A program made the position numbers and the translations under genes. A stretch of 64,000 nt of DNA from contig CAVYTU010000009.1 in NCBI GenBank assembly GCA_963771465.1, positions 96,001 through 160,000 of the forward strand, in the 5' to 3' direction. Positions 5,008 through 51,099 of the stretch are shown piece by piece. Position 1 is the first letter of the stretch, and the number at the start of each line of letters is the position of its first letter. Source of the DNA: an uncultured delta proteobacterium. GTDB taxonomy: Bacteria; Desulfobacterota; Binatia; UBA9968. The notes beneath the pieces are model-generated. The model saw nothing but the letters and a program-made list of their open reading frames with translations, was not told where the DNA came from and searched no databases.

Positions 5008-5700
5008 GGTTATCTCCCGGGTTGAGAAAACTTTATGTATAGGAAATTTAAACCACCTTTTTTCTGGCCGGAGTAAATATAATCTGATCCGCCTTGAGAT
5101 AGTTGATCAGCATTCCGACCGGAGCGGCCCGATGCGGGCCATGAGGCCTGGCGCGGGGCAGCGGAAAATGCCACGCGACGATACTAAAGACAAAATCGAA
5201 ATGGTATCAGGGTAGCCCTGATTTTCTGTGTCGAGTCTCCCGATGAAAGTTTAGGGGCATGGGAAACGCAAGCTCGTCAAGAACTGACGCTGACCGAAGC
5301 GTTCAACAACCAAACCGCCCAGCTTGGCGCCGACCACCAGAACCGCAAGTCCGAACAGCACGGGCGCCTATTGGGAAGCCCCGGTAGATTCACCGCTGGC
5401 CGCTGGTCGGATCAGATCGGGCCACGGCAGGAACTCCTTTCTTTGGGTTAGGTTTTGGCTCCCGTCCTGCGGCCCCGGGTGGGATAAGCTCAACCAGTTA
5501 TTGGATAGCCCACAACGCTTTCAAACAGTCTAACGAATCGAGGCCGGACCGACTCGCCGAGACTAAGGGAAAGCGTATCAAGGATCAGTAGAGCCCCGGT
5601 GTTCAGCAAAGAGTGAGTCCGTTAAACTTGGAACCATGAGTTATAAAGATAGATCAGAAAAAAAGGTTGTTTAAATTTCCCAGCGAAAGGAGACTGCACG

Positions 5701-6256
5701 ATGTCCAAATGGAGATTCCCCCAGTAGACCACGATGACGTTCATCGCCATGATGTTGCTTGCCGGTTGCGTCTCGCAACAAAAAGTATGACTCGCTGGAC
5801 GCAGAATATCAGCAACTCAACCATACAATGTCGGCGGAGGTCGCCACCAACCAGATGCAGATCACGCGATTGCAAAACGCCGTTAAGGTCACGGTCAACA
5901 GTGAGCTGCTGTTTCCCTCGGGCGACTGGCAAATGTCGGTTGAAGCGCAGCAGACCATCGGCAAAATCGTTCCGATCCTAGCCCCCAACCAGCAAACCAA
6001 GATTAAGGTGAACGGCTATACCGACAATGTCCCGATCGGCCCGGGGCTCATGCGCGAGGGCATCACCAGCAATCAGGTGCTGTCCCAGAAGCGGGCCGAC
6101 AACGTGATGCAGTTCATGATCTCGCGGGGCGTCAACCCCAGCCTGGTGTCCGCGCAGGGTTTAGGCGAGACAGACCCCATGGCCTCGAACGACACGCCGG
6201 AGGGCCGGGCGAAGAACCGGCGGGTGGAACTGACCGTGGCTGGTTCGGGCAACTGA
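5701..6256 (+). pseudogene. OmpA/MotB-family lipoprotein, disrupted by an in-frame TAG (5725) and a +1 frameshift in an A-run (~5780)
   Basis: RBS AAGGAG then MSKWRFPQ*TTMTFIAMMLLAGCVSQQK (lipobox LAGC). The frame then shifts to YDSLDAEY..GYTDN..LSQKRA..GRAKNRRVE (OmpA C-domain). Confidence 0.8.
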
Positions 6257-6444
6257 GCTAGGCGGCCTTGGCTGGTCGCCGCGAGCAGCCGTCAATCAGG
6301 CCTCACAGGAGCAAACGTCCTCATCCCGAGTTCGGCATGACTCTGCATCTGGTCACGCACGCTATGGAGGGAGTGCTGTGAAGATTATCAGCTTGCCGCT
6401 GTTGTTCGTGCCGGTGGCCGTGGCCTTGGAACATCTGGCATCCG
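6199..6444 (+). repeat. ~245-bp direct repeat, copy 1 (ompA 3' end, intergenic DNA, 5' stub of a second gene)
   Basis: Aligns by eye to 12000-12243 with scattered substitutions. Confidence 0.92.
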
Positions 6445-7276: not shown

Positions 7277-7873
7277 GTGCCCACAATGCCTAATGCACAA
7301 TCAATAGCAACCCTGCTTAAGGGGGCGGGTCTCGCCACGATCCCTAACCTGCTGTCCTTCGCCCGGATCGTCGGGGTAACCTTAGCGGTCATTCTCTACT
7401 TGGGAGGACACGGTTGGGTGGCAGTGGCGATCGGCACCGTCGCCGGCGTGACCGACCACCTCGATGGCTACCTAGCGCGACGGCTTAAGCAAGAGACTGC
7501 CCTCGGAGCCATGCTGGACCAGGTCGCTGACAGTTTCACAACGGCGATCCTGCTCGCCATGCTCGTCGTCACGGGCGGTATCCCGTTCGCCTATCTGGTA
7601 ATCTTCCTGTTAAGGGAGTTCTGGGTTGGCACCGTGAGGCGGTACGGCGCAACGGTGGGCATCGAAATCCCCTCGATCGCGCTGGGCAAGATGGCGACCG
7701 CGGTGATTGACTGGGCCATTCTGACGGTGGCGATCATTATCCTGCCCGATATGCCCGCGCGAGTCGTGACACCGGTGCACTGGATAGGACTTGTGGGCCT
7801 GGGCGTGGGTTTGGCCATCAGTTGCCTGACGGGCTGGCGCTATACAATAACTTTGGGGGCTAAGATAGTGTGA
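7277..7873 (+). CDS. CDP-alcohol phosphatidyltransferase (PgsA-like)
   Basis: TIPNLLSFAR, DHLDGYLARR..G..LDQVAD (D-x2-DG-x2-AR-x8-G-x3-D-x3-D signature), LLRE, GKMAT; multiple TM helices. Confidence 0.92.
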   Translation: MPTMPNAQSIATLLKGAGLATIPNLLSFARIVGVTLAVILYLGGHGWVAVAIGTVAGVTDHLDGYLARRLKQETALGAMLDQVADSFTTAILLAMLVVTGGIPFAYLVIFLLREFWVGTVRRYGATVGIEIPSIALGKMATAVIDWAILTVAIIILPDMPARVVTPVHWIGLVGLGVGLAISCLTGWRYTITLGAKIV

Positions 7874-9045
7874 AACCGATATCCACAAATACTACACGGC
7901 GCGGCGCCGAAATTCTGCTCTGCCCAGGTCCTGTCATGCTATCCCCTGGCGTCAAGGCAGCACTTGCCGACTGCGAGATAGGACACCGCGATACGCGCTT
8001 CTCGCAGCTGGTTACGCGGGTGCGGTGCAATAGCCGCCACGTCTTCCGCTCTGGAGATGAGCACAGCGTCCTTTTCATCGGCGGACCCGCGACGGCTGCA
8101 ATTGAAGCGGTGTGCGCCTCGCTCGTGCCACCGGATGCCAGGGTGCTTGTCCCCGTCAACGGGTCATTCGGAGCCCGTATCGCGGAGATCCTGAATGTTT
8201 ACCAGATCCCCCACACAGCGATCGATTTCGGGTTCGGTAAGCCTTTCGATCTGGATCGCATCAAGGCGGTCATTGCGAAAGAGCGCCAGTGCGGGTTCAC
8301 TGCAGTGGCGATGACCCACCATGAAACGTCAGCGGGCCTGCTCAACCCGGTGGCGGCTGTCGGTGCCCTGGCGCGGCAGCACGGCCTGAAACTGATCGTC
8401 GACGCCACGTCGAGCGCAGGCGTCGAGGACCTGGATGTAACGCGCGATGGGATCGACGCGTGCGTTACGACCTCCGGAAAATGCCTGCATGCAGCGCCGG
8501 GGCTCAGCCTTGTCTGCGTGCGACGCGACCTGCTTGAAATGGCCAGGCTAATCCGCCCGCGCAGTTATGCGTTGGACCTGCATCGTTTCCATGACCAGAT
8601 GGAATTCAACCGCCAGACGCCCTTCACAGCCTCTGTGCCCTTGTTCCTTGCGCTCGACCGCGCGCTTGAAGAACTTCTCGATCGGGGCATCGATGAACGA
8701 CGACGCGTCTACTGGCGACGCCGCGAAATACTGGCGGCAGGAATGGTACGGCTGGGGTTACCTCTGCTGCCGTTGCCACCGGGGAGTGAAGCCGCTTCGA
8801 TTCTGACGGTCGGCGTTCCGGAAACACTCGGCTTCGACGCGCTTTACGCGGCCGTCAAGGATCGTGGCTACCTCATCTATGCCTGCAAGCCGCCGCTGGC
8901 GCCGAATTATTTCCAAATCGCGGTGATGGGAGAATTGGCGGACGATGAGCTCCATGAATTTCTCGAGATTTTGCAGTCGTTGATGACCACAGTGCCGGCG
9001 CGTTGCCTCCCTCTGCTAGATTACCCCGCGGGTGATCAAAATTGA
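7870..9045 (+). CDS. Class V PLP-dependent aminotransferase (PhnW/AEP-transaminase/serine-pyruvate aminotransferase-like)
   Basis: LLCPGPV, GHRD, HHETSAGLLNP, VDATSS, SGKCLHAAPGLS (PLP lysine); start overlaps the upstream stop. Confidence 0.9.
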   Translation: MKPISTNTTRRGAEILLCPGPVMLSPGVKAALADCEIGHRDTRFSQLVTRVRCNSRHVFRSGDEHSVLFIGGPATAAIEAVCASLVPPDARVLVPVNGSFGARIAEILNVYQIPHTAIDFGFGKPFDLDRIKAVIAKERQCGFTAVAMTHHETSAGLLNPVAAVGALARQHGLKLIVDATSSAGVEDLDVTRDGIDACVTTSGKCLHAAPGLSLVCVRRDLLEMARLIRPRSYALDLHRFHDQMEFNRQTPFTASVPLFLALDRALEELLDRGIDERRRVYWRRREILAAGMVRLGLPLLPLPPGSEAASILTVGVPETLGFDALYAAVKDRGYLIYACKPPLAPNYFQIAVMGELADDELHEFLEILQSLMTTVPARCLPLLDYPAGDQN

Positions 9046-9539
9046 CAGGAAAAGAAGTGTCACCTGCCGTCAACACGGGGGTATTCCGCAGCTGGCGCCA
9101 TTTTCTCGCGTTCGGTCTCGGTAGCGGACTGGCCAGGTTTGCGCCGGGCACGTTCGGCACCCTCGTTGCAATCGCCTTCTATCTTCTCCTGAGCCCGCTG
9201 CCGCACTGGCTCTATGCAATCTGCGTGTTTTGCGCCTTTGCCTTTGGTGTCTGGCTTTGTCAAAGCGTCACGCACGACCTCGGTGTGCACGACCATGGCG
9301 GCATCGTGTGGGACGAGTTCGTCGGTTACTGGATCACGATGTTCCTCGTGCCCGTTAGCTGGGGCACGGTCCTGGCCGGCTTTGCGCTGTTTCGCCTGCT
9401 CGACATCTGGAAACCATGGCCGATTTGCTGGATCGACAAGCACGTGCAAGGCGGCTTCGGCATCATGCTGGATGATGTGATTGCCGGCGCGGCCGCCTGT
9501 ATTATCCTCCACTCCCTTCGCGCGGGCGCCGGTTTTTGA
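9042..9539 (+). CDS. pgpA: Phosphatidylglycerophosphatase A
   Basis: GLGSGL..APGTFGT, HDHGGIVWDEFVG, FRLLDIWKPWPI, GGFGIMLDDVIAG. Confidence 0.95.
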   Translation: MTGKEVSPAVNTGVFRSWRHFLAFGLGSGLARFAPGTFGTLVAIAFYLLLSPLPHWLYAICVFCAFAFGVWLCQSVTHDLGVHDHGGIVWDEFVGYWITMFLVPVSWGTVLAGFALFRLLDIWKPWPICWIDKHVQGGFGIMLDDVIAGAAACIILHSLRAGAGF

Positions 9540-9981
9540 ACCATCGGCCGTTGTCGTTCCCGAAATCAAGCCAACGTGCAGTTACTGCTGAACGGTGTGA
9601 GAGATACGTTCGTGACAGAGCCGAGTTTCCGTGTCTCGTATAGTGAACACATTGGTCTCAGAACGCTATTCAAGTCTACTATCAGCGATGGTGTCGACAA
9701 GGGGTTGTAACGACCGATGTTAGTCTGCGACTCTGGCTGTTTTTCTATTGGGAGCTGGCCACATGCATTAATCCATGATAGACGTAGCAGATGACAAGGG
9801 GCTGGCGCGCGGGGTTATTCCGTGCGCTGAAAATTATGGTACACTACCCAGGTAGCCAGAGGCTAACTGCCATGAAAATCGAGTACTTAAAAACACAGAT
9901 AGTTACTGTAGTGACCATCGCATTGGCTGCGTTTTTCTTATTGCTCGCTTCTAAATGGTTATGGCGGCCAGGTAGCACACG

Positions 9982-10896
9982 TTGATGAGGCGTGTTTTCA
10001 ACATAAGCATCTCCTACACTGGAGGGCTACTTCTGCTTATCGTGCTGTTACCTTCTTGTGCAACAACGCAACTTCATTCAACACCACCCGTGCACTACGA
10101 TCAGAATTCAAGCATTCCGTATCATGCTGACCAGCATTCCGATGAACATGGTCTCAGGGTCATGACACTGAACGTAGCCCACGGGCGAGGGACCAGTTTT
10201 CATCAATTGCTGCAGCATTCAGCCAAGATTGTGAAAAACCTAGATCGTATAAACGAACTAATGAACCAGGCAGCACCGGATATCGTTGCTTTTCAGGAGA
10301 TCGATGCGCCTTCGTTCTGGAGTGGCAATTTCAACCACGTGGGATATCTTGCAAGTCACAGCATGTTTACCCGTTCGATTCAGGCGTCACACGTTAATGC
10401 GATGAGACTTTCCTATGGTACAGCACTGATATCAAGACAGGAGATGTCGAATCCGCAGGCGGTTACATTTAACCCCTCACTTACACTGGTACCCACGGGT
10501 TTTGTGGTATCGACCATTAGTTGGCCGGGAAGGGACAGTATCGACATTGATGTAGTTTCTGTTCATCTGGATTTCATGAGTGGTTGGGTCAGGAAAAAAC
10601 AGGCAGACGAACTGATTGCAGTTTTACGTGCCAGAAACAATCACGTGATTATCATGGGCGACCTGAACTCAGGATGGCTGCCGCAGGACTCGGCAGCACA
10701 GTACCTGGTTGAGAAACTTGGGCTGAAGGCGTACCAGCCGGAAAACCGCAATCTGATCACTTTTCCCCTGCTTGGCAGACGCCTGGACTGGGTCCTGATA
10801 TCGGCCGGTCTTGAGTTTTCTTCCTATGAAGTTATCGGAACCGATATTTCCGATCATCGTGGTGTACTTGCCGAGCTTACGCTTTCTGGCGGGTAA
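9982..10896 (+). CDS. Endonuclease/exonuclease/phosphatase (EEP) family lipoprotein
   Basis: Lipobox LLPSC; MTLNVAHG, FQEID, VHLD, MGDLN, LDWVL, SDHRGV. Confidence 0.9.
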   Translation: MMRRVFNISISYTGGLLLLIVLLPSCATTQLHSTPPVHYDQNSSIPYHADQHSDEHGLRVMTLNVAHGRGTSFHQLLQHSAKIVKNLDRINELMNQAAPDIVAFQEIDAPSFWSGNFNHVGYLASHSMFTRSIQASHVNAMRLSYGTALISRQEMSNPQAVTFNPSLTLVPTGFVVSTISWPGRDSIDIDVVSVHLDFMSGWVRKKQADELIAVLRARNNHVIIMGDLNSGWLPQDSAAQYLVEKLGLKAYQPENRNLITFPLLGRRLDWVLISAGLEFSSYEVIGTDISDHRGVLAELTLSGG

Positions 10897-11141
10897 ATAA
10901 TGGTGGTGGAGTCGCCAGTGTATGGCGACATTTCGCTCTAATCGCCTCACTTGTGTGCTGGTATGATGCAAAAACCGGATTGACCGTCCTGTCGTGCAGG
11001 CGATCCGGTTCGGCCACCGAGTTGGTGGGTATGTCGCGGCACAGTTTGTCCACCTGCAGGACAAGGCACTGTGTGTAGAGCGGGTTTTTTTGCCAGCCCG
11101 ATACCACGCGACAGGGTCAGCTCACATAAAGAATCCAAATT

Positions 11142-11864
11142 TCACTGTTCAGAATAAAAAACAATCTTTTTAATAAAGGCGGCGGCGCCACCTTTTGTGT
11201 CGTCGGTGTTCATTTCAAACGCAAAGCCTGTGATGGGCGGCGTCTTTTCCTGTTTGAAAACATCTTTAAATCGATTGTTGACTTCAAATTTGGTGACAAT
11301 GGTTTGCCCCATAGGCGCGCCATTGGATACACAAAAGTAGCGCCCACCTTCCTGGTATAAAGCACCGAGGTACATTCTATTAACCTGTTCTTTCTCGCCG
11401 ATGAACGCACTAAGGAAGTACGGAGCGGCCTTGATGCCAAAAGGCAAGCCGCTACTCAACTTCTTGTCGCCAAAACTGAAAATGACGCCAATCGGCACCC
11501 GTTTATTTCCTTGTGCCCAGTCTGCACCGATGGGAAAGCGGTTTACACCCCATTCAATAACAACATGATTTACGTCGCGAACGTAATTTGGCTTGCCAAA
11601 CTTTAATCCGAACATGGCTGTCAAACCTTCGTTCGTGCTGATGCGCAGCCCCTCATTCTCAAACTTCAAATGCAATCTCTTTGCATCGAGAAAATCATCG
11701 AATCCCTGCTTCTTAAGCCATGTGAATGCATCGATATTCTCTTTCTGGCCGAAATCCATGGTGTATAGAGCCTTGGGTTCGGCGCCCGCGGATATTATCT
11801 CACCCATGATTATGGCGATTCCAAGTATCGCAGCACATAGGCACTTCTTGGAATTTGTCTTCAC
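11142..11864 (-). CDS. Secreted hypothetical protein (DUF3047-like)
   Basis: Signal peptide; C-terminal PPITGFAFEMNTDDTKGGAAAFIKKIVF resembles the DUF3047 end motif. Confidence 0.6.
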   Translation of the reverse strand: MKTNSKKCLCAAILGIAIIMGEIISAGAEPKALYTMDFGQKENIDAFTWLKKQGFDDFLDAKRLHLKFENEGLRISTNEGLTAMFGLKFGKPNYVRDVNHVVIEWGVNRFPIGADWAQGNKRVPIGVIFSFGDKKLSSGLPFGIKAAPYFLSAFIGEKEQVNRMYLGALYQEGGRYFCVSNGAPMGQTIVTKFEVNNRFKDVFKQEKTPPITGFAFEMNTDDTKGGAAAFIKKIVFYSEQ

Positions 11865-11999
11865 GCCATCTGTCCCTTATCGGTTATTGGTCATGACAAG
11901 CACTGAAAAGTATATATCCCTTTGTATCTGCAAGGGAAGCTGCCGACAATTCACCTTTGGTTTCCCATTCTTGCCATGCAATAGAGCACTTCACTTACA

Positions 12000-12243
12000 G
12001 GACGGCCGGGCGAAGAACCGGCGCGTGGAACTGACGGTGGCTGGTTCGGGCAACTGAATCAGGCGGCCTTGGCTGGTCGCCGCGAGCAGCTCAATCCGGC
12101 CTCACAGGAGAAAACGTCCTCATCCTGAGCTCGGCATGACCCTGCATCTGGTCACGCACGCTATGGAAGGAGTCCTGTGAAGATTATCAGCTTAGCGCTG
12201 TTGTTCGTGCCGGTGGCCGTGGCCCCGGAACATCTGGCATCCG
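12000..12243 (+). repeat. ~245-bp direct repeat, copy 2
   Basis: Again encodes GRAKNRRVELTVAGSGN*; ends at the same CATCTGGCATCCG as copy 1. Confidence 0.92.
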
Positions 12244-12548
12244 AAGTTGTCAATCAATTTTCGTTCGCGTTCATCCCAATATACCTGGTCAGTATATATA
12301 GTGCCAATATACCTGCACAGAACAGGTTAATTCATTACCGATGAGCCGGACTACGAACCACTCTATTTTGTCGTAGGATTGAACTGAACGACGCTTCAAT
12401 TTCATCTCACAGGATTTGTATGGAAGATAACGTTCAACTATAAGGTGAGCGTATCGGGTGAGCGCCGCCAGCGTTCCAGAAGTCGTGGGATGGGAAGCGG
12501 CATCACCGCGCACATTAGGTTAACAGTGATTCGACGAAGTCTGCAAAG

Positions 12549-12734
12549 ATGAGACTAATCGGAAAAGTTTGTCCACGTTGCGGAAAGCCTGGATCGGTGC
12601 TCTATATGACGAAAGAGCGAATTGTCTATCAGTGTCCAAGCGAACATCAGTACGAAACTAGGTTCAGCAAATTCAGTATCGCTACACCGCAACCTGCTTC
12701 TCAAGAAAACAAACCAGATCGTATCTTGACATAG
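12549..12734 (+). CDS. Small putative zinc-ribbon protein
   Basis: CPRC..CPSEH pattern, ATG start. Confidence 0.45.
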   Translation: MRLIGKVCPRCGKPGSVLYMTKERIVYQCPSEHQYETRFSKFSIATPQPASQENKPDRILT

Positions 12735-13893
12735 GCGTCCTTCTCTTGCCTGGCCGTCGTCTTCCGTCAGATTGACAATCCTCGCGTCGGGTTGGATTTA
12801 TCCGTCACTGTTAAAGAGCTTGTCACTTGGTTCGTCATCAACCATGAGTGCGAGTCTATCATTTCGATACCGAGTCAGAACTTGCTTGGTATTTGGCTTG
12901 CCTGGAATGTGGGGCTAATGAGCCATTAGGTGTCGTCAAAAAATCCCAACGACCTAAAGCTCTCTCCGAAAAATACTCAGCGCAGAACGCCACAACGTGA
13001 TAAAGGAAGGACTGGCTTTGTACTGCCGATGAAAGTCCCGTAGCCATCGTTATATTTAGTGGTTCGCTCAGGCTTGTCCGATGACTATCCGAACGGCCAG
13101 CGTTCTGTGGCGAGCGAGATTATTATTCGCATCCTGGCTGCAATCGGATTCCCCGGGTCGCGACCTATGAATGCGTGGTCACTCCGTCCGATAGGCCGCA
13201 TTCCCATTTTCTTTCTTCTAAGAAGATAATGATGCCGATTTCAGGGATTTCCTGATAGGAATTTCTTGCCTCTAGTGTCAAAGCGGTCAGGTAGCGCCTC
13301 GGTGATTGATAATTCAACAGTCCAAGACGGGGAAGAGGGTATTGGACCAAAGTCCAATAGAAAAGCTTTCCGCGCCTCGTTAGTTCGCGTTGGAATGCCA
13401 TCAATTGAATCGCTATTGATCGGATAATAAACCTAAACACTATTAAGGAGGCTATATGAAGCTATTTAGGATGGTGCTTACGGGGATCATGCTTGTGGGT
13501 TTAACATCCGTCGCCTCCGACCATATCGCTACGCGCTCTTCTTCATGACGGACGACGTACTGTTGCATCTTCTTTTTTGACCGAAGGGCTCTACATCGTT
13601 GATGAGGACAGCAATGGATCATTGGCTAAACAAATGCGCCAGGACTGATATTTCTTAAAGAGCTTTCCACTTGGTTTATATTGAACCATAAGTTGAGCCT
13701 GGTATTTGGATCGAAGGCGAGTCAGAACTTGCTTGATATTTTGCTTGCGTCGAATGCGGAGCTAACGACCGGCGATCGGCCCAATCCCGGGCGGGTTTTA
13801 CTGATACAACATCCAAGTAGTAGTGTGGCAACAGCCACAATAATTCCTAATGCGAAAATAGAATCGGAAATTTTGTTGGTGAGGGGTCCTGCC

Positions 13894-14106
13894 ATGGCAA
13901 TAGAATTTCGGTCCGATCTCAAAGGAATCTGGCATTGGTGCTCCGACTGCCGATATTGGCCAGCAAACTCGTTCGACATTCTAAACACCCAAACACTGCC
14001 ACCCGGTTTTAAGAGCTGCCCGGAATGCACGGTCCTAGCTCCCATCGATGGATTCATAGCGCTGTCCGAATCACCTTCACGATCCCTGCGTCCGAAAGCC
14101 CGGTGA
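13894..14106 (+). CDS. Small Cys-rich protein (WHWCxxC..CxxC)
   Basis: GAGGGG RBS, MAIEFRSD..WHWCSDCRYWP..CPEC. Confidence 0.5.
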   Translation: MAIEFRSDLKGIWHWCSDCRYWPANSFDILNTQTLPPGFKSCPECTVLAPIDGFIALSESPSRSLRPKAR

Positions 14107-14145
14107 GCACGAGAAAACTCGGTCATAGAAGATCAGACCGACGCC

Positions 14146-14490
14146 CAAAGCACGTCAACACTCGCGCCAAAGCAGCGATGATGATCGCCTTGGATCGGCA
14201 TCGAAAGTACGTGGTGCAGTCGCAAAGATACTATGAAAAGAAACGCAGCGAGGGAAAGAAACACAATCAGGCTGTCCGAGCTCTAGGTCGACACTTGTCT
14301 CGGATCATCTACAAAATGCTCACCGAAGAACGTCCCCAAAAAGGGAATAACAAGACAAAGGTCAGTCCGAGATCGTCGATTAAAACGCAAATATGGAGGC
14401 CGAAAATCTTATCCAGGAAAAACAAATAACAAAAACTTCGTAGAGCACGTACCTCAGCCTCATCCACTTGAAATTCTCAGCGGGATGATC
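14146..14490 (+). mobile_element. IS110-family transposase C-terminal remnant and probable IS end
   Basis: SQRYYEKKRSEGKKHNQAVRALGRHLSRIIYKML is typical of the IS110 C-terminus. Confidence 0.7.
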
Positions 14491-14649
14491 AGACTCTTAC
14501 GTCTCGATTTTCGCCGCCATCAACAACCTTTGCCAACAACCTAGGAACACCGATCAACACAATACCCGAACCTGAACTGTCCATCCATAAGGATACGCTC
14601 CCAGGCGCTCCGTTCGAGGTTTAATTCCAAAGCCTGTTCCAATCGCTCA

Positions 14650-14730
14650 ACCGGTTCCATCATCACCTTATGACCTCTGATCAATCGTATGAATCTCTCG
14701 ATTTCGCGAGTCGAAGCGAAATTGCTCATA
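14650..14730 (-). pseudogene. ORF6N-domain protein N-terminal remnant
   Basis: EIERFIRLIRGHKVMM resembles the IxxIRGxKVML start of ORF6N domains. Confidence 0.4.
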
Positions 14731-14928
14731 GGGAACGACCCTTTCAAGCGCTCGGGCGAAGACATTAAGTGGTGCGGCAATCATTCAGCCAAAATTTTCG
14801 TTACCCTACTGGAATCACCGTCGCTGTGACAAGGGACGGGAAAGGATAAAGACAAAGGAATAGAGGATAAAAGCCGTGGACGCGATCGTGGTGGGAATAC
14901 TCGTGTTCGTGGTGTCTCCAGCCTATCG

Positions 14929-15420
14929 TTAGAGCAACTCTAGAATTTCCGACCTTAAGTTGCCACGATGAATTTCTAACCGCGCGATTGTGACCGGCAG
15001 CTTAAACCTTCTCGGTCCGGCGCTGCCGGGATTTACGAACAAGACATCGCCGCGCTGAACGATGCTTGGCTTGTGGGAATGACCGCTGATCACGGCGCGA
15101 ATTCCTGCGGCGTTGGGAATTTCTTCAAGATCGTTGACGTTATGGATCACGTGTAATTTGATGCCATTGATCTGGAAATTGAGAATGTCCGGAAGTGTCT
15201 TTGACCATGCATCGCGGTCGTTGTTGCCGCGGATGGCATGCACTGGTGCGACGGAACACAGGGATTGAAGTACTTGGGGCTTGCCGATGTCACCACCATG
15301 AATAATCAGCTCAACTCCCTTCAACGCAGCCAAAGCTTCGGGACGAACCAAGCCGTGGGTGTCGGAGATCACGCCGATAATGCCTTTTTTGATTTCGATC
15401 CGTTTCTTCCGAACTAGCAT
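14929..15420 (-). CDS. Metallophosphoesterase, YfcE/MJ0936 family
   Basis: ISDTHG, HGGDIG, RGNND, SGHSH, NPGSAG. Confidence 0.92.
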   Translation of the reverse strand: MLVRKKRIEIKKGIIGVISDTHGLVRPEALAALKGVELIIHGGDIGKPQVLQSLCSVAPVHAIRGNNDRDAWSKTLPDILNFQINGIKLHVIHNVNDLEEIPNAAGIRAVISGHSHKPSIVQRGDVLFVNPGSAGPRRFKLPVTIARLEIHRGNLRSEILELL

Positions 15421-48898: not shown

Positions 48899-49875
48899 AA
48901 TTTTTCCAGTAGTTAGAATTTGATCTAGAAAAGGTTCCGGCAAAGGTTCCGGTTTTCTGCTCTCTGGCGGATTGTTTCGGTTGTTCGACATAAGCTCTGA
49001 GCAGAGCGTCACCGTCGTCACGGATATACTTCCCGTAGTGTTCTTGAATCATGGCAATACTGGTTCCGGTCTGTTCCGCAATCCACTTTTGATTACAGCC
49101 TAACGTCAAGGCGATACTGATAAACGTGTGAGGTGTGCTGTAGAACGGTCGCGAACGAATCTTGAGAACGCGCAGCACGGGTTGAAAGCTGCAACGATTA
49201 AATTCCGATTGGTCTATGGGTTTGCCTTGTCCGTCTGTAAAAACGTAGCCGTTGGGCTCTACGCGCAGCGGGAGAATGGTTTTTAAAAGCTCTACGACGT
49301 TAGGCAGCAATGACACCGTTCGGCGACTTGCCCTAGTCTTGGTCGCGTTCCCGTCCAGAATCGGAAATAGACGAACGCATAAGCCGACGGCGGACGGTTA
49401 GCGCGATAGTAGGCTAGAATCGCGTCGCGTTCCTGCTCTGTATACGGATCGGGCTCTCTTTGTGGCAATCGCGGCCACCAATTAGCCGGCAGATCGTTGA
49501 AGGGGTTTCGGTCCAGACGTCGACCCGCGTCCCGAACCATCGCTCTTAAGGAACCGTCAATGATGTTCCGCGCAGTCTTTAGGGCTAAGCGCCGCTCATC
49601 GATCAAATGAATACGAAAACTCTCTAGCGTGTCCACGTCCAAGGTTTTTAATTCCTTGTCGCCCATGAATGGTAAAATATTCTTATTGAAGTTTTGCTGA
49701 TAGTCCCGTTGCAGACTTAACCTGACAAAGGGTGGTTTCTTTTTCTGAATCCACTCTTCGTAAAAGGCCCGAACGGTTTGCGGCTTGAGCTCAACAGGCT
49801 TGGTCTCAACGGGCTTGAACTCGTCCGCGCGGTTTCCGTTCGGGAACCATCGCAAATATTCAAACCGCCCCCCTT
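48858..49875 (-). pseudogene. Tyrosine integrase (5'-truncated, internal deletion/frameshift ~49340)
   Basis: FEYLRWFPNG (arm-binding-domain tail), FWTGTRP joined out of frame to KTRASRRTV, YSTPHT (Pro at the catalytic Arg position), HYGKY. Confidence 0.88.
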
Positions 49876-51099
49876 CGCCGCGAGTACTCAAGAACCGATG
49901 CCAAGGGTCGTATCTCGCTTCTGAAGACCATTTACGATACGTCATCAAACGCCCAGCTTCCTTTTGAAATTGCGAGCCTCGCGGTAAACGACGAACACGT
50001 AGAGGTCCGAGAATGGATCGCGTTAAACGGTAGATGGCTTGACTATAGCGAACGCCGTGACGAAAGCATCACCGATGTGATTACTCCCTCGCAAAGAAAT
50101 CTGGAAGAGCAACTAAGACATGATACCGAACCGTTCGTTGGGGCACGACTCCGAGAAAATCCCACCGTCCACTTTGGTTGTCACTCACAACAATTTCAGA
50201 CCGCAACCCACATGGAGCGGCTCGCCACGATGTGTAATCCCCAGCTTTGGATTACGGACGCTTGCAGGTTGCTCGAAAAACTCTTCGACTACGAAAACAA
50301 CGAACTCGCGATCTCGCTTGAACAGCGCAAAGAACTGATCGCCGCCTTTCTCACCAACCACAAGCTAATCGCCCAACTGAAAGAGTGGACTGAGGGTACT
50401 GAGAGAAGAACTTTTACGTCAATTCTCTGGGACCTAGCGTCAAAATGGCCAAGGTCTCCTGAGTCGGAAGTAAGGCGAACCGTCAGACCGATCTTGATGC
50501 CTCACCATGTGTATGTTTATTTGCCGGCCGACGACGAAACCAAGGCGAGAGTATATCGGAAAGAGGATAATGCCCTTTGCAGGCAGTGGATTATTGAAGA
50601 TTATAGCCCAGAAGACGTTCAAACGATCGAACTCGGCAAGAAGGACAAAGACAAGTCTTGCCGTGAGCAAGCTCGACGTGTTTCTCAGAAACCAATAATG
50701 TCGGACGAAGATTATGACGAAAAGGAGAAGCAAGAATGGGCGGCAAAGGCAAAGTACCGCCAAGAGTTGATGACATTCTATACCCGCCTTGCGATAGCCC
50801 TAATCGTCGTCAAACTTTATTTCCCAGAATGGTCTAATGTCGCTTTGGGTGTCAGCATTGGATTGTCTGGAATCTTAATTCTTATATCTGTTTTTGAGCA
50901 TGTCGTCCGTAGATTTCAAAGAAAAAGAGAATGGACACAAAGCGCCATCGCGCAAGTGTATCTCGACGATAGTCTAGAAAAAGCTCGCGATTTATTGGAA
51001 AAGGGTCTGTCTCCACTCGTAATTTCGAAAGAAACAGGGCTTTCTCTAAAAATCCTTAAACGCGAGGGGGTAATAATTGACGAGTTTAAAAACCCATAA
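49870..51099 (+). pseudogene. 5'-truncated membrane protein (two C-terminal TM helices)
   Basis: The 50077 frame stays open upstream (LRREYSRTDAKGRISLLKTIYD..VREWIALNG) with no start codon. Confidence 0.55.

Follow-up and report, generated by a model that had tools for sequence, protein, structure and literature searches.

A conserved cassette of a PgsA-like transferase, a class V PLP enzyme and a PgpA-family phosphatase in uncultured soil bacteria, a candidate pathway for an amino-headgroup phospholipid

We analysed a 64,000 nt stretch of DNA (the window) from an uncultured delta proteobacterium of the Binatia, taken from contig CAVYTU010000009.1, which is contig C9 of a 19-contig, 6.9-Mb genome; all coordinates below follow the numbering of the window. 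Three co-directional genes lie head to tail at 7277–9539 on the forward strand, an arrangement already claimed in a preliminary description of the sequence and borne out here by both the open reading frames and their Pfam families. The first gene (7277..7873, 198 aa) encodes a PgsA-like CDP-alcohol phosphatidyltransferase (CDP-OH_P_transf, PF01066; 95.6 bits against a cut-off of 22), an additional paralogue whose acceptor pocket is altered. The second (7870..9045, 391 aa) encodes a class V pyridoxal 5′-phosphate (PLP) enzyme (Aminotran_5, PF00266; 65.7 bits against 21.5) from a clade that stands beside the 2-aminoethylphosphonate (AEP) transaminases, which we propose may make an amino-alcohol phosphate. 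The third (9042..9539, 165 aa, with an alternative GTG start at 9057) encodes a PgpA-family lipid phosphate phosphatase (PgpA, PF04608; 148.7 bits against 28). None of the three proteins reached the cut-off of its closest NCBIfam equivalog.

According to the preliminary description, adjoining genes shared overlapping stop and start codons at both junctions. The GTGA at 7870–7873 is a true start/stop overlap, and a PLP start at 7870 is required, since the region homologous to PhnW starts at residue 9. Many database entries of PLP homologues are only 362–363 aa long and begin at an internal Met23; these starts were likely mis-called, as they cut off residues homologous to the PhnW N-terminus. 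At the second junction the TTGA is present at 9042–9045 but the overlap itself is uncertain, since the in-frame GTG at 9057, which has an AGGA ahead of it, is an equally good or better start for the phosphatase. A start at 9057 is at least as likely as one at 9042, given that alignments with distant PgpA homologues start no earlier than residue 7–9 and that the genes of these homologues lie 62–97 nt past the PLP gene. Promoter and terminator scans returned nothing exceeding shuffled expectation.

The order of the three genes is conserved well beyond this genome. A scan with the PLP protein, using one genome per species, returned 22 loci, of which 20 were orthologous (58–97% identity); the transferase gene was found directly upstream of the PLP gene in 18/18 assessable orthologous genome loci, and a PgpA gene downstream of it in 19/19. 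The remaining two loci (40% identity) encode a fusion of a nucleoside triphosphate (NTP) transferase with an aminotransferase, without lipid genes. A metagenome scan with the transferase as query returned a further 30 loci, with the PLP gene after the transferase in 22 of the 24 that could be assessed and PgpA next in all 12. Both exceptions (L091 and L092) are fragmentary contigs in which only 169 nt from the interior of the transferase gene (window 7441–7609) are present, fused to the 3′ region of an OmpA gene (5685–6267), and this piece looks like the remnant of a cassette deletion. Apart from these two contigs the order transferase, PLP enzyme, PgpA was kept at 54–98% identity, and the transferase and PLP genes overlapped or lay no more than 51 nt apart in 26 of 27 loci, the exception (L035) having a split transferase match. 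Identities to the window co-varied among the three genes across 27 complete loci (Spearman 0.91–0.93), a value that describes co-inheritance and does not test it, as the loci are kin. The arrangement of the trio is far from chance, and the conserved synteny for which the preliminary description proposed to search was found in genomes and metagenomes alike. Together with co-divergence and a canonical pgsA elsewhere in five of the six cassette genomes (four of the five other than the window's genome), it supports the earlier suggestion of a dedicated three-gene operon distinct from housekeeping phosphatidylglycerol (PG) synthesis.

The catalytic motif of the transferase (D-x2-D-G-x2-A-R...G-x3-D-x3-D) is intact, with D60, D63, G64, A67, R68, G77, D81 and D85 each found in at least 111 of 112 homologues and six of these residues invariant. 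The protein scored 77.4 bits against TIGR00560 (pgsA), below the cut-off of 109.1, as well as 71 bits against ClsA and 30 bits against PIPSynth. Its sole relative in the PDB is Staphylococcus aureus PgsA (SaPgsA; 7DRJ/7DRK), with an alignment of 32.8 bits. The structural account of SaPgsA describes the 3′-phosphate of phosphatidylglycerol phosphate (PGP) as bound by Lys83, Arg110, Arg118, Lys137 and Tyr181, the electropositive pocket that neutralises glycerol 3-phosphate (G3P) as made up of Lys83, Arg110 and Lys137, Thr138 as bonding the 2′-OH, and the loop between transmembrane helices 4 and 5 (TM4-5) as shaping the G3P channel (PMC8640168). Like SaPgsA, the window transferase retains Arg110, Arg118, Lys135, Thr138 and Tyr181 in addition to the catalytic motif. 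Unlike SaPgsA, it has lost both pocket lysines: the position of Lys83 is Ser in 111/112 homologues and that of Lys137 is Ala in 112/112, leaving only Arg110 of the electropositive pocket. Both lysines are missing from all 18 trio-linked transferases, one of which has Gly instead of Ser, and a new Glu or Asp (E130 in the window protein) stands in the TM4-5 loop of 110/112 homologues where PgsA has Val. The housekeeping pgsA copy retains both lysines. The window's genome carries five CDP-alcohol transferase genes in all, among them a canonical pgsA on contig C1 (142 bits, above the cut-off) and a copy on C8 that scored 102.7 bits. Judged by alignment, the pocket would have lost two positive charges and gained a negative one beside the residue contacting the 2′-substituent, a change in line with what would be expected if the acceptor bore an amine and were cationic or less anionic.

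The lysine losses would also fit a phosphate-free acceptor, for instance PG if the enzyme were a cardiolipin synthase of the CMP-forming type. We therefore weighed an explanation in which the trio is a spare PG/cardiolipin module: the transferase would act either as an additional PGP synthase or as such a cardiolipin synthase, using CDP-diacylglycerol and PG, PgpA would supply the PG, and the PLP enzyme would be an unrelated hitch-hiker. The best family scores of the transferase are indeed those for pgsA and ClsA, the JGI database names several of its homologues cardiolipin synthase, the two missing lysines are those that bind a terminal phosphate, and PLD-like and WS/DGAT lipid genes occur near some loci. 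What makes this explanation quite unlikely in our view is the position of the PLP gene, which is inserted between both lipid genes in every complete locus at 54–98% identity, with start and stop codons that often overlap; over such divergence a passenger would not stay put, and the conserved new acidic residue would also go unexplained.

All three motifs listed in the preliminary description of the PLP enzyme (SGKC, QTPFT and FQIAVMG) were found in its translation. As in the AEP transaminases PhnW (1M32, 7E7G) and Tde1415 of Treponema denticola (6PD1), the Schiff-base lysine and the aspartate to the pyridine nitrogen of PLP are retained, K204 and D178 each being present in 119/119 proteins. 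The enzyme scored 297.1 bits against TIGR03301 (PhnW/AepZ; cut-off 360.8) and 205.2 bits against TIGR02326 (cut-off 400.8), its best PDB relatives are AEP transaminases (154.8 and 141.8 bits), and its only look-alikes in the Protein Atlas were generic AEP-transaminase clusters. A scan of 1.84 billion representatives returned about five 50%-clusters above 330 bits, after which the score dropped to 295 bits at 43% identity. The next relatives beyond this clade are NTP-transferase-aminotransferase fusions, the architecture described for the proven AEP transaminase Tde1415 (PMC6697681; PDB 6PD1), and one fusion of a thiamine pyrophosphate (TPP)-dependent decarboxylase with an aminotransferase. In a midpoint-rooted FastTree phylogeny of 251 sequences, the 118 clade members were monophyletic (support 1.0) on a stem of 0.53, and the fusions fell within a 19-member sister group.

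Two residue differences had been read in the preliminary description as signs of a new substrate, namely Gln for Arg at the FRI(G) motif and TPFT in place of WRFT. Neither argument holds, because the outgroup and the sister clade share both residues: among 134 outgroup proteins, 71 have R and 49 have Q at position 349 and 110 have P at position 251, and of the sister proteins 14/19 have Q at position 349 and none has R. We rejected Q349 and P251 as clade-specific clues, both having been inherited from AEP-transaminase relatives; the PntC-fused AEP transaminases of the sister clade have the Q at the FR(I/V) position and the TPFT in common with the trio enzyme. The residues that do set the clade apart are P73-A74 (S-G in the outgroup), A183 (L/F/V/I), G203 (N) and V352 (N/T), together with R43, which is present in 96/119 clade proteins where E or D is found in 99/134 outgroup proteins. 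By homology, these changes would enlarge the pocket and add positive charge, and would suit a longer, branched phosphate ester.

With such relatives, the PLP enzyme might be a true AEP transaminase and the transferase an enzyme that builds or remodels a phosphonolipid. Its closest families are PhnW/AepZ (297 bits) and the AEP transaminases of the PDB, its sister clade holds the PntC-fused enzymes, and an AEP transaminase is described together with a CDP-alcohol phosphatidyltransferase in phosphonolipid clusters of Nostoc and Burkholderia, alongside pepM, ppd and an NTP transferase (PMC5987646). Unlike those clusters, the trio has PgpA in their stead: no pepM, ppd or NTP transferase was found among the neighbours scanned around it. 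PEP mutase (TIGR02320) was above its cut-off in none of the six cassette genomes, with a best score in the window's genome of 141 against 319.55; as a control, it was above the cut-off in one of 14 reference genomes. The window's genome likewise gave no phosphonopyruvate decarboxylase (Ppd, TIGR03297; best 206.8 against 312.5) and no PhnX phosphonatase (TIGR01422; best 43 against 220) above cut-off. The preliminary description had reported neither PEP mutase nor phosphonopyruvate decarboxylase. Neither a source nor a sink of phosphonoacetaldehyde, in the form of PEP mutase with Ppd or of PhnX, was found, the PhnY/PhnA route not having been searched. The chemistry is no more favourable to a phosphonolipid, as the trio is without a cytidylyltransferase, AEP is without a hydroxyl for a transferase of the CDP-diacylglycerol type, and a C-P lipid offers PgpA nothing to cleave. 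The PLP enzyme itself differs from PhnW and PntC-fused enzymes in forming a separate long-stem clade, scoring below the family cut-off, never being fused to a cytidylyltransferase and having five altered pocket positions. Taken together, a phosphonate-related module seems to us very improbable.

We also noted split pairs of TPP-decarboxylase genes on contigs C13, C15, C17, C18 and C19 of the window's genome, which are weakly phosphonopyruvate-decarboxylase-like and may be sulfopyruvate-decarboxylase-like. Sulfonate head groups such as taurine and cysteinolic acid, an idea prompted by these genes, were dropped because a sulfonate gives PgpA no substrate.

The phosphatase scored 184.6 bits against the E. 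coli-type equivalog NF008288 (PRK11068; cut-off 226), and a search of the PDB for its relatives returned no match. It is the sole PgpA-family gene in three of the six cassette genomes, all three among the five further carriers, and is an extra copy in some genomes. A second pgpA in the window's genome (C15:1038819-1039233) consists of two frames meeting at a T-run, and is either an assembly error or a pseudogene; the reading frame starting directly after it is presumably cinA-like.

Our interpretation of the trio is that an amino-alcohol phosphate is made, receives a phosphatidyl group and is then dephosphorylated, so that the resulting lipid would bear a head group other than glycerol; we regard this as plausible, if not quite probable. 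In the first step the PLP enzyme, an offshoot of the AEP transaminases, would convert a phosphate ester with a keto or aldehyde group into an amino-alcohol phosphate by transamination. The simplest case would be dihydroxyacetone phosphate (DHAP) to serinol 3-phosphate, because the primary hydroxyl and phosphate of G3P stay in place and only the 2-OH is swapped for an amine. In the second, the PgsA-like transferase, whose family is clear and whose acceptor is predicted, would move phosphatidyl from CDP-diacylglycerol to that hydroxyl. In the third, the PgpA-family phosphatase, again secure in family and putative in substrate, would strip the phosphate at the end of the head group. This would yield phosphatidylserinol, a PG analogue that is zwitterionic and has a mass 0.984 Da below that of PG. 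The last two steps might also run in reverse order: dephosphorylation would then precede transfer, the acceptor would be the free amino alcohol, and the end product would be the same. Serinol is our candidate for the head group, and other amino-alcohol phosphates would fit the data equally. The bolder claim, that a mobile soil cassette makes 2-amino-2-deoxy-PG (phosphatidylserinol) from DHAP and CDP-diacylglycerol and so a new zwitterionic class of glycerophospholipid, is rather doubtful.

Step 1 might also proceed by other chemistry. A pentulose or tetrose phosphate, for example, might be turned into an amino-polyol phosphate of larger size, or the enzyme might be no transaminase but a decarboxylase or lyase acting on a phospho-amino acid; the head group would then be neither glycerol nor serinol. 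The side chains shrunk by L/F183A, N203G and N352V and the charge added by R43 would accommodate a substrate that exceeds AEP in bulk and length, and class V does include non-transaminases. Set against this, the clade nests within proven transaminases, and in attack of the PgsA type the attacking group is the primary hydroxyl adjacent to C2 of an acceptor with three carbons, a hydroxyl that most alternative phospho-amines would lack. We consider such chemistry unlikely.

Known systems offer precedents for the logic of the proposed amino-alcohol pathway. The PgsA-PgpA route to PG employs the same two families and would follow the same two-step logic; unlike it, the trio transferase scores below the pgsA cut-off and carries the substitutions of Lys83 and Lys137 and the new Glu/Asp, and the trio genes are accessory extra copies, always split by the PLP gene. 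The inositol-lipid cluster BT_1522-1526 of Bacteroides is described as uniting a head-group-phosphate synthase (BT_1526), a CDP-alcohol transferase (BT_1523) and a PgpA-family phosphatase that acts on phosphatidylinositol phosphate (BT_1525), and thus shows that PgpA-family enzymes can act beyond glycerophosphate head groups (PMC9246714). The three corresponding functions of the trio are likewise co-located and jointly inherited, but its head-group enzyme is a PLP enzyme and not an inositol-phosphate synthase (MIPS), and its transferase is PgsA-like and not PIPS-like. The chemistry proposed for step 1 is that of the DHAP transaminase in the N-domain of Bradyrhizobium RtxA, which makes serinol phosphate (PMC3222319), and of Cj1437 in the Campylobacter capsule pathway, described as making serinol phosphate from DHAP that is coupled first and from which Cj1435 then removes the phosphate (PMC11800397). 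The order of coupling and dephosphorylation would therefore be alike in Campylobacter and the trio; unlike the proposed lipid, the products of RtxA and Cj1437 enter a toxin and a capsule.

Besides the fit of the lysine losses to a phosphate-free acceptor and the cardiolipin synthase names given to some transferase homologues by JGI, several further points weigh against this pathway. Every substrate assignment in it draws on homology. The roles of the SaPgsA residues were mapped through a single alignment (32.8 bits) to a single structure, with a tag offset of 20 checked at Arg65, Lys75 and Lys135. Among characterised enzymes, those closest to the PLP enzyme use phosphonoacetaldehyde or AEP and not DHAP, and RtxA and Cj1437 are likened to it by chemistry and not by sequence. 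The G74A change falls in what we take to be the loop that binds the PLP phosphate in class V enzymes, which leaves cofactor binding putative. At two loci (L041 and L047) the PgpA match is partial, covering the first 57–69 residues only, and the phosphatase may be truncated in these genomes. Finally, the RNA-library contigs described below are a hint of expression, with a single transcript not proven and DNA carry-over possible.

The trio is rare and lies in a variable segment. The PLP gene was found in 2/61 sampled relatives, in 3/90 genomes of the host family (the window's genome included) and in 2/151 sampled genomes from the family of a distant carrier. Direct repeats of about 245 nt, at 6199..6444 and 12000..12243 (the latter stretch 93% identical to the left copy), enclose a 5.8-kb stretch holding the trio, a gene for a lipoprotein of the endonuclease/exonuclease/phosphatase (EEP) family and a gene for a secreted hypothetical protein. 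The left copy comprises the 3′ end of an OmpA-family gene and downstream DNA; the right copy carries only the last 18 or so codons of the OmpA-like frame. In a genome of the same genus without the trio (L096), window positions 5405–5736 abut 12248–13514 at 96–97% identity, and since 5736 is joined straight to 12248, the segment 5737–12247 is an indel. No integrase or transposase was found within the repeat-bounded stretch. Near-identical loci carry discordant taxon labels in public records, and carriers at 54–70% identity bear the label Steroidobacteraceae or Burkholderiales. All or most of the stretch was present in runs of 16 studies, mainly of soil and rhizosphere with some sediment and groundwater, and all 10 clusters checked for a cultured carrier came from metagenome-assembled genomes or metagenomes. 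Contamination is 6–7% in all three host-family genomes that hold the cassette. The possibility that contig C9 is a bin contaminant was examined and rejected, its tetranucleotide profile matching that of the genome at r = 0.997; in view of this agreement and of the indel in the same genus, we treat the contig as part of the genome and the cassette as accessory. The trio is best read as a self-contained, horizontally mobile accessory operon of uncultured soil bacteria. As separate observations, G+C drops to 0.47–0.50 just past the trio, at window 10000–15000, the value for the genome being 0.55, and a 218-aa open reading frame at 49292–49948 encodes no more of a phage integrase than its SAM-like domain, the N-terminal one.

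In six soil metatranscriptome runs, 43–55% of sampled words of the stretch were present. Contigs from two soil RNA libraries span both gene junctions (window 7284–9437 and 7738–9455), and two more contigs span one junction each. The layout of the RNA runs is without cover in parts, for example at 9468–9895 in X16 and X18. A contig of run X18 ends at window 7284, 7 nt past the GTG and 2 nt ahead of an ATG; this single observation may mark a transcript or fragment end, and the loose end of the contig is presumably sequencing adapter.

The neighbours of the trio vary between lineages, and none of those noted (EEP, Metallophos, AlaX, PLD and WS/DGAT) is universal. The EEP-family gene (9982..10896, + strand; PF03372, 59 bits), whose product has a lipoprotein-like N-terminus, lies within the variable segment and follows the trio only in close relatives; it is absent in L038 and L075, and its link to the trio is unproven. 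Another lineage has a Metallophos protein upstream of the trio (L041:4315-5166, L048:4367-5218). EEP and Metallophos are unrelated phosphoesterase families, and both proteins may be enzymes of head-group turnover. Just upstream of the transferase in L042-L044, L046, L047, L049 and L082, and on the same strand, is a gene for an AlaX-like protein (tRNA_SAD, about 210–290 aa), itself preceded in L044 and L046 by a gene for a 700-aa PLD-like protein; a WS/DGAT gene lies downstream on the opposite strand in L043-L046. These AlaX-like, sometimes PLD-like, and WS/DGAT neighbours belong to a Steroidobacteraceae-like group and may form a larger lipid-remodelling neighbourhood.

Among the papers searched, none was found to describe phosphatidylserinol or such an operon; the operon is new as a variation on the PG-type head-group pathway, and the lipid itself is a prediction. 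The diversity of bacterial head groups is thought to be largely charted, and re-use of the PG pathway to build a new amino head group would enlarge the set of lipid classes as well as bring new PgsA- and PgpA-type specificities. It would also reveal a new activity within the AEP-transaminase lineage, whose members are labelled 2-aminoethylphosphonate transaminase in databases, a label that would then inflate estimates of phosphonate metabolism in soils. If the prediction is true, phosphatidylserinol may explain some of the 'unidentified aminophospholipids' of lipid surveys, and its synthesis would be a third route, beside phosphatidylethanolamine synthesis and MprF-type aminoacylation of PG, for putting positive charge on an anionic lipid. 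By converting an anionic lipid to a zwitterionic one, such a cassette could shift membrane charge and sensitivity to cationic peptides in one transfer step.

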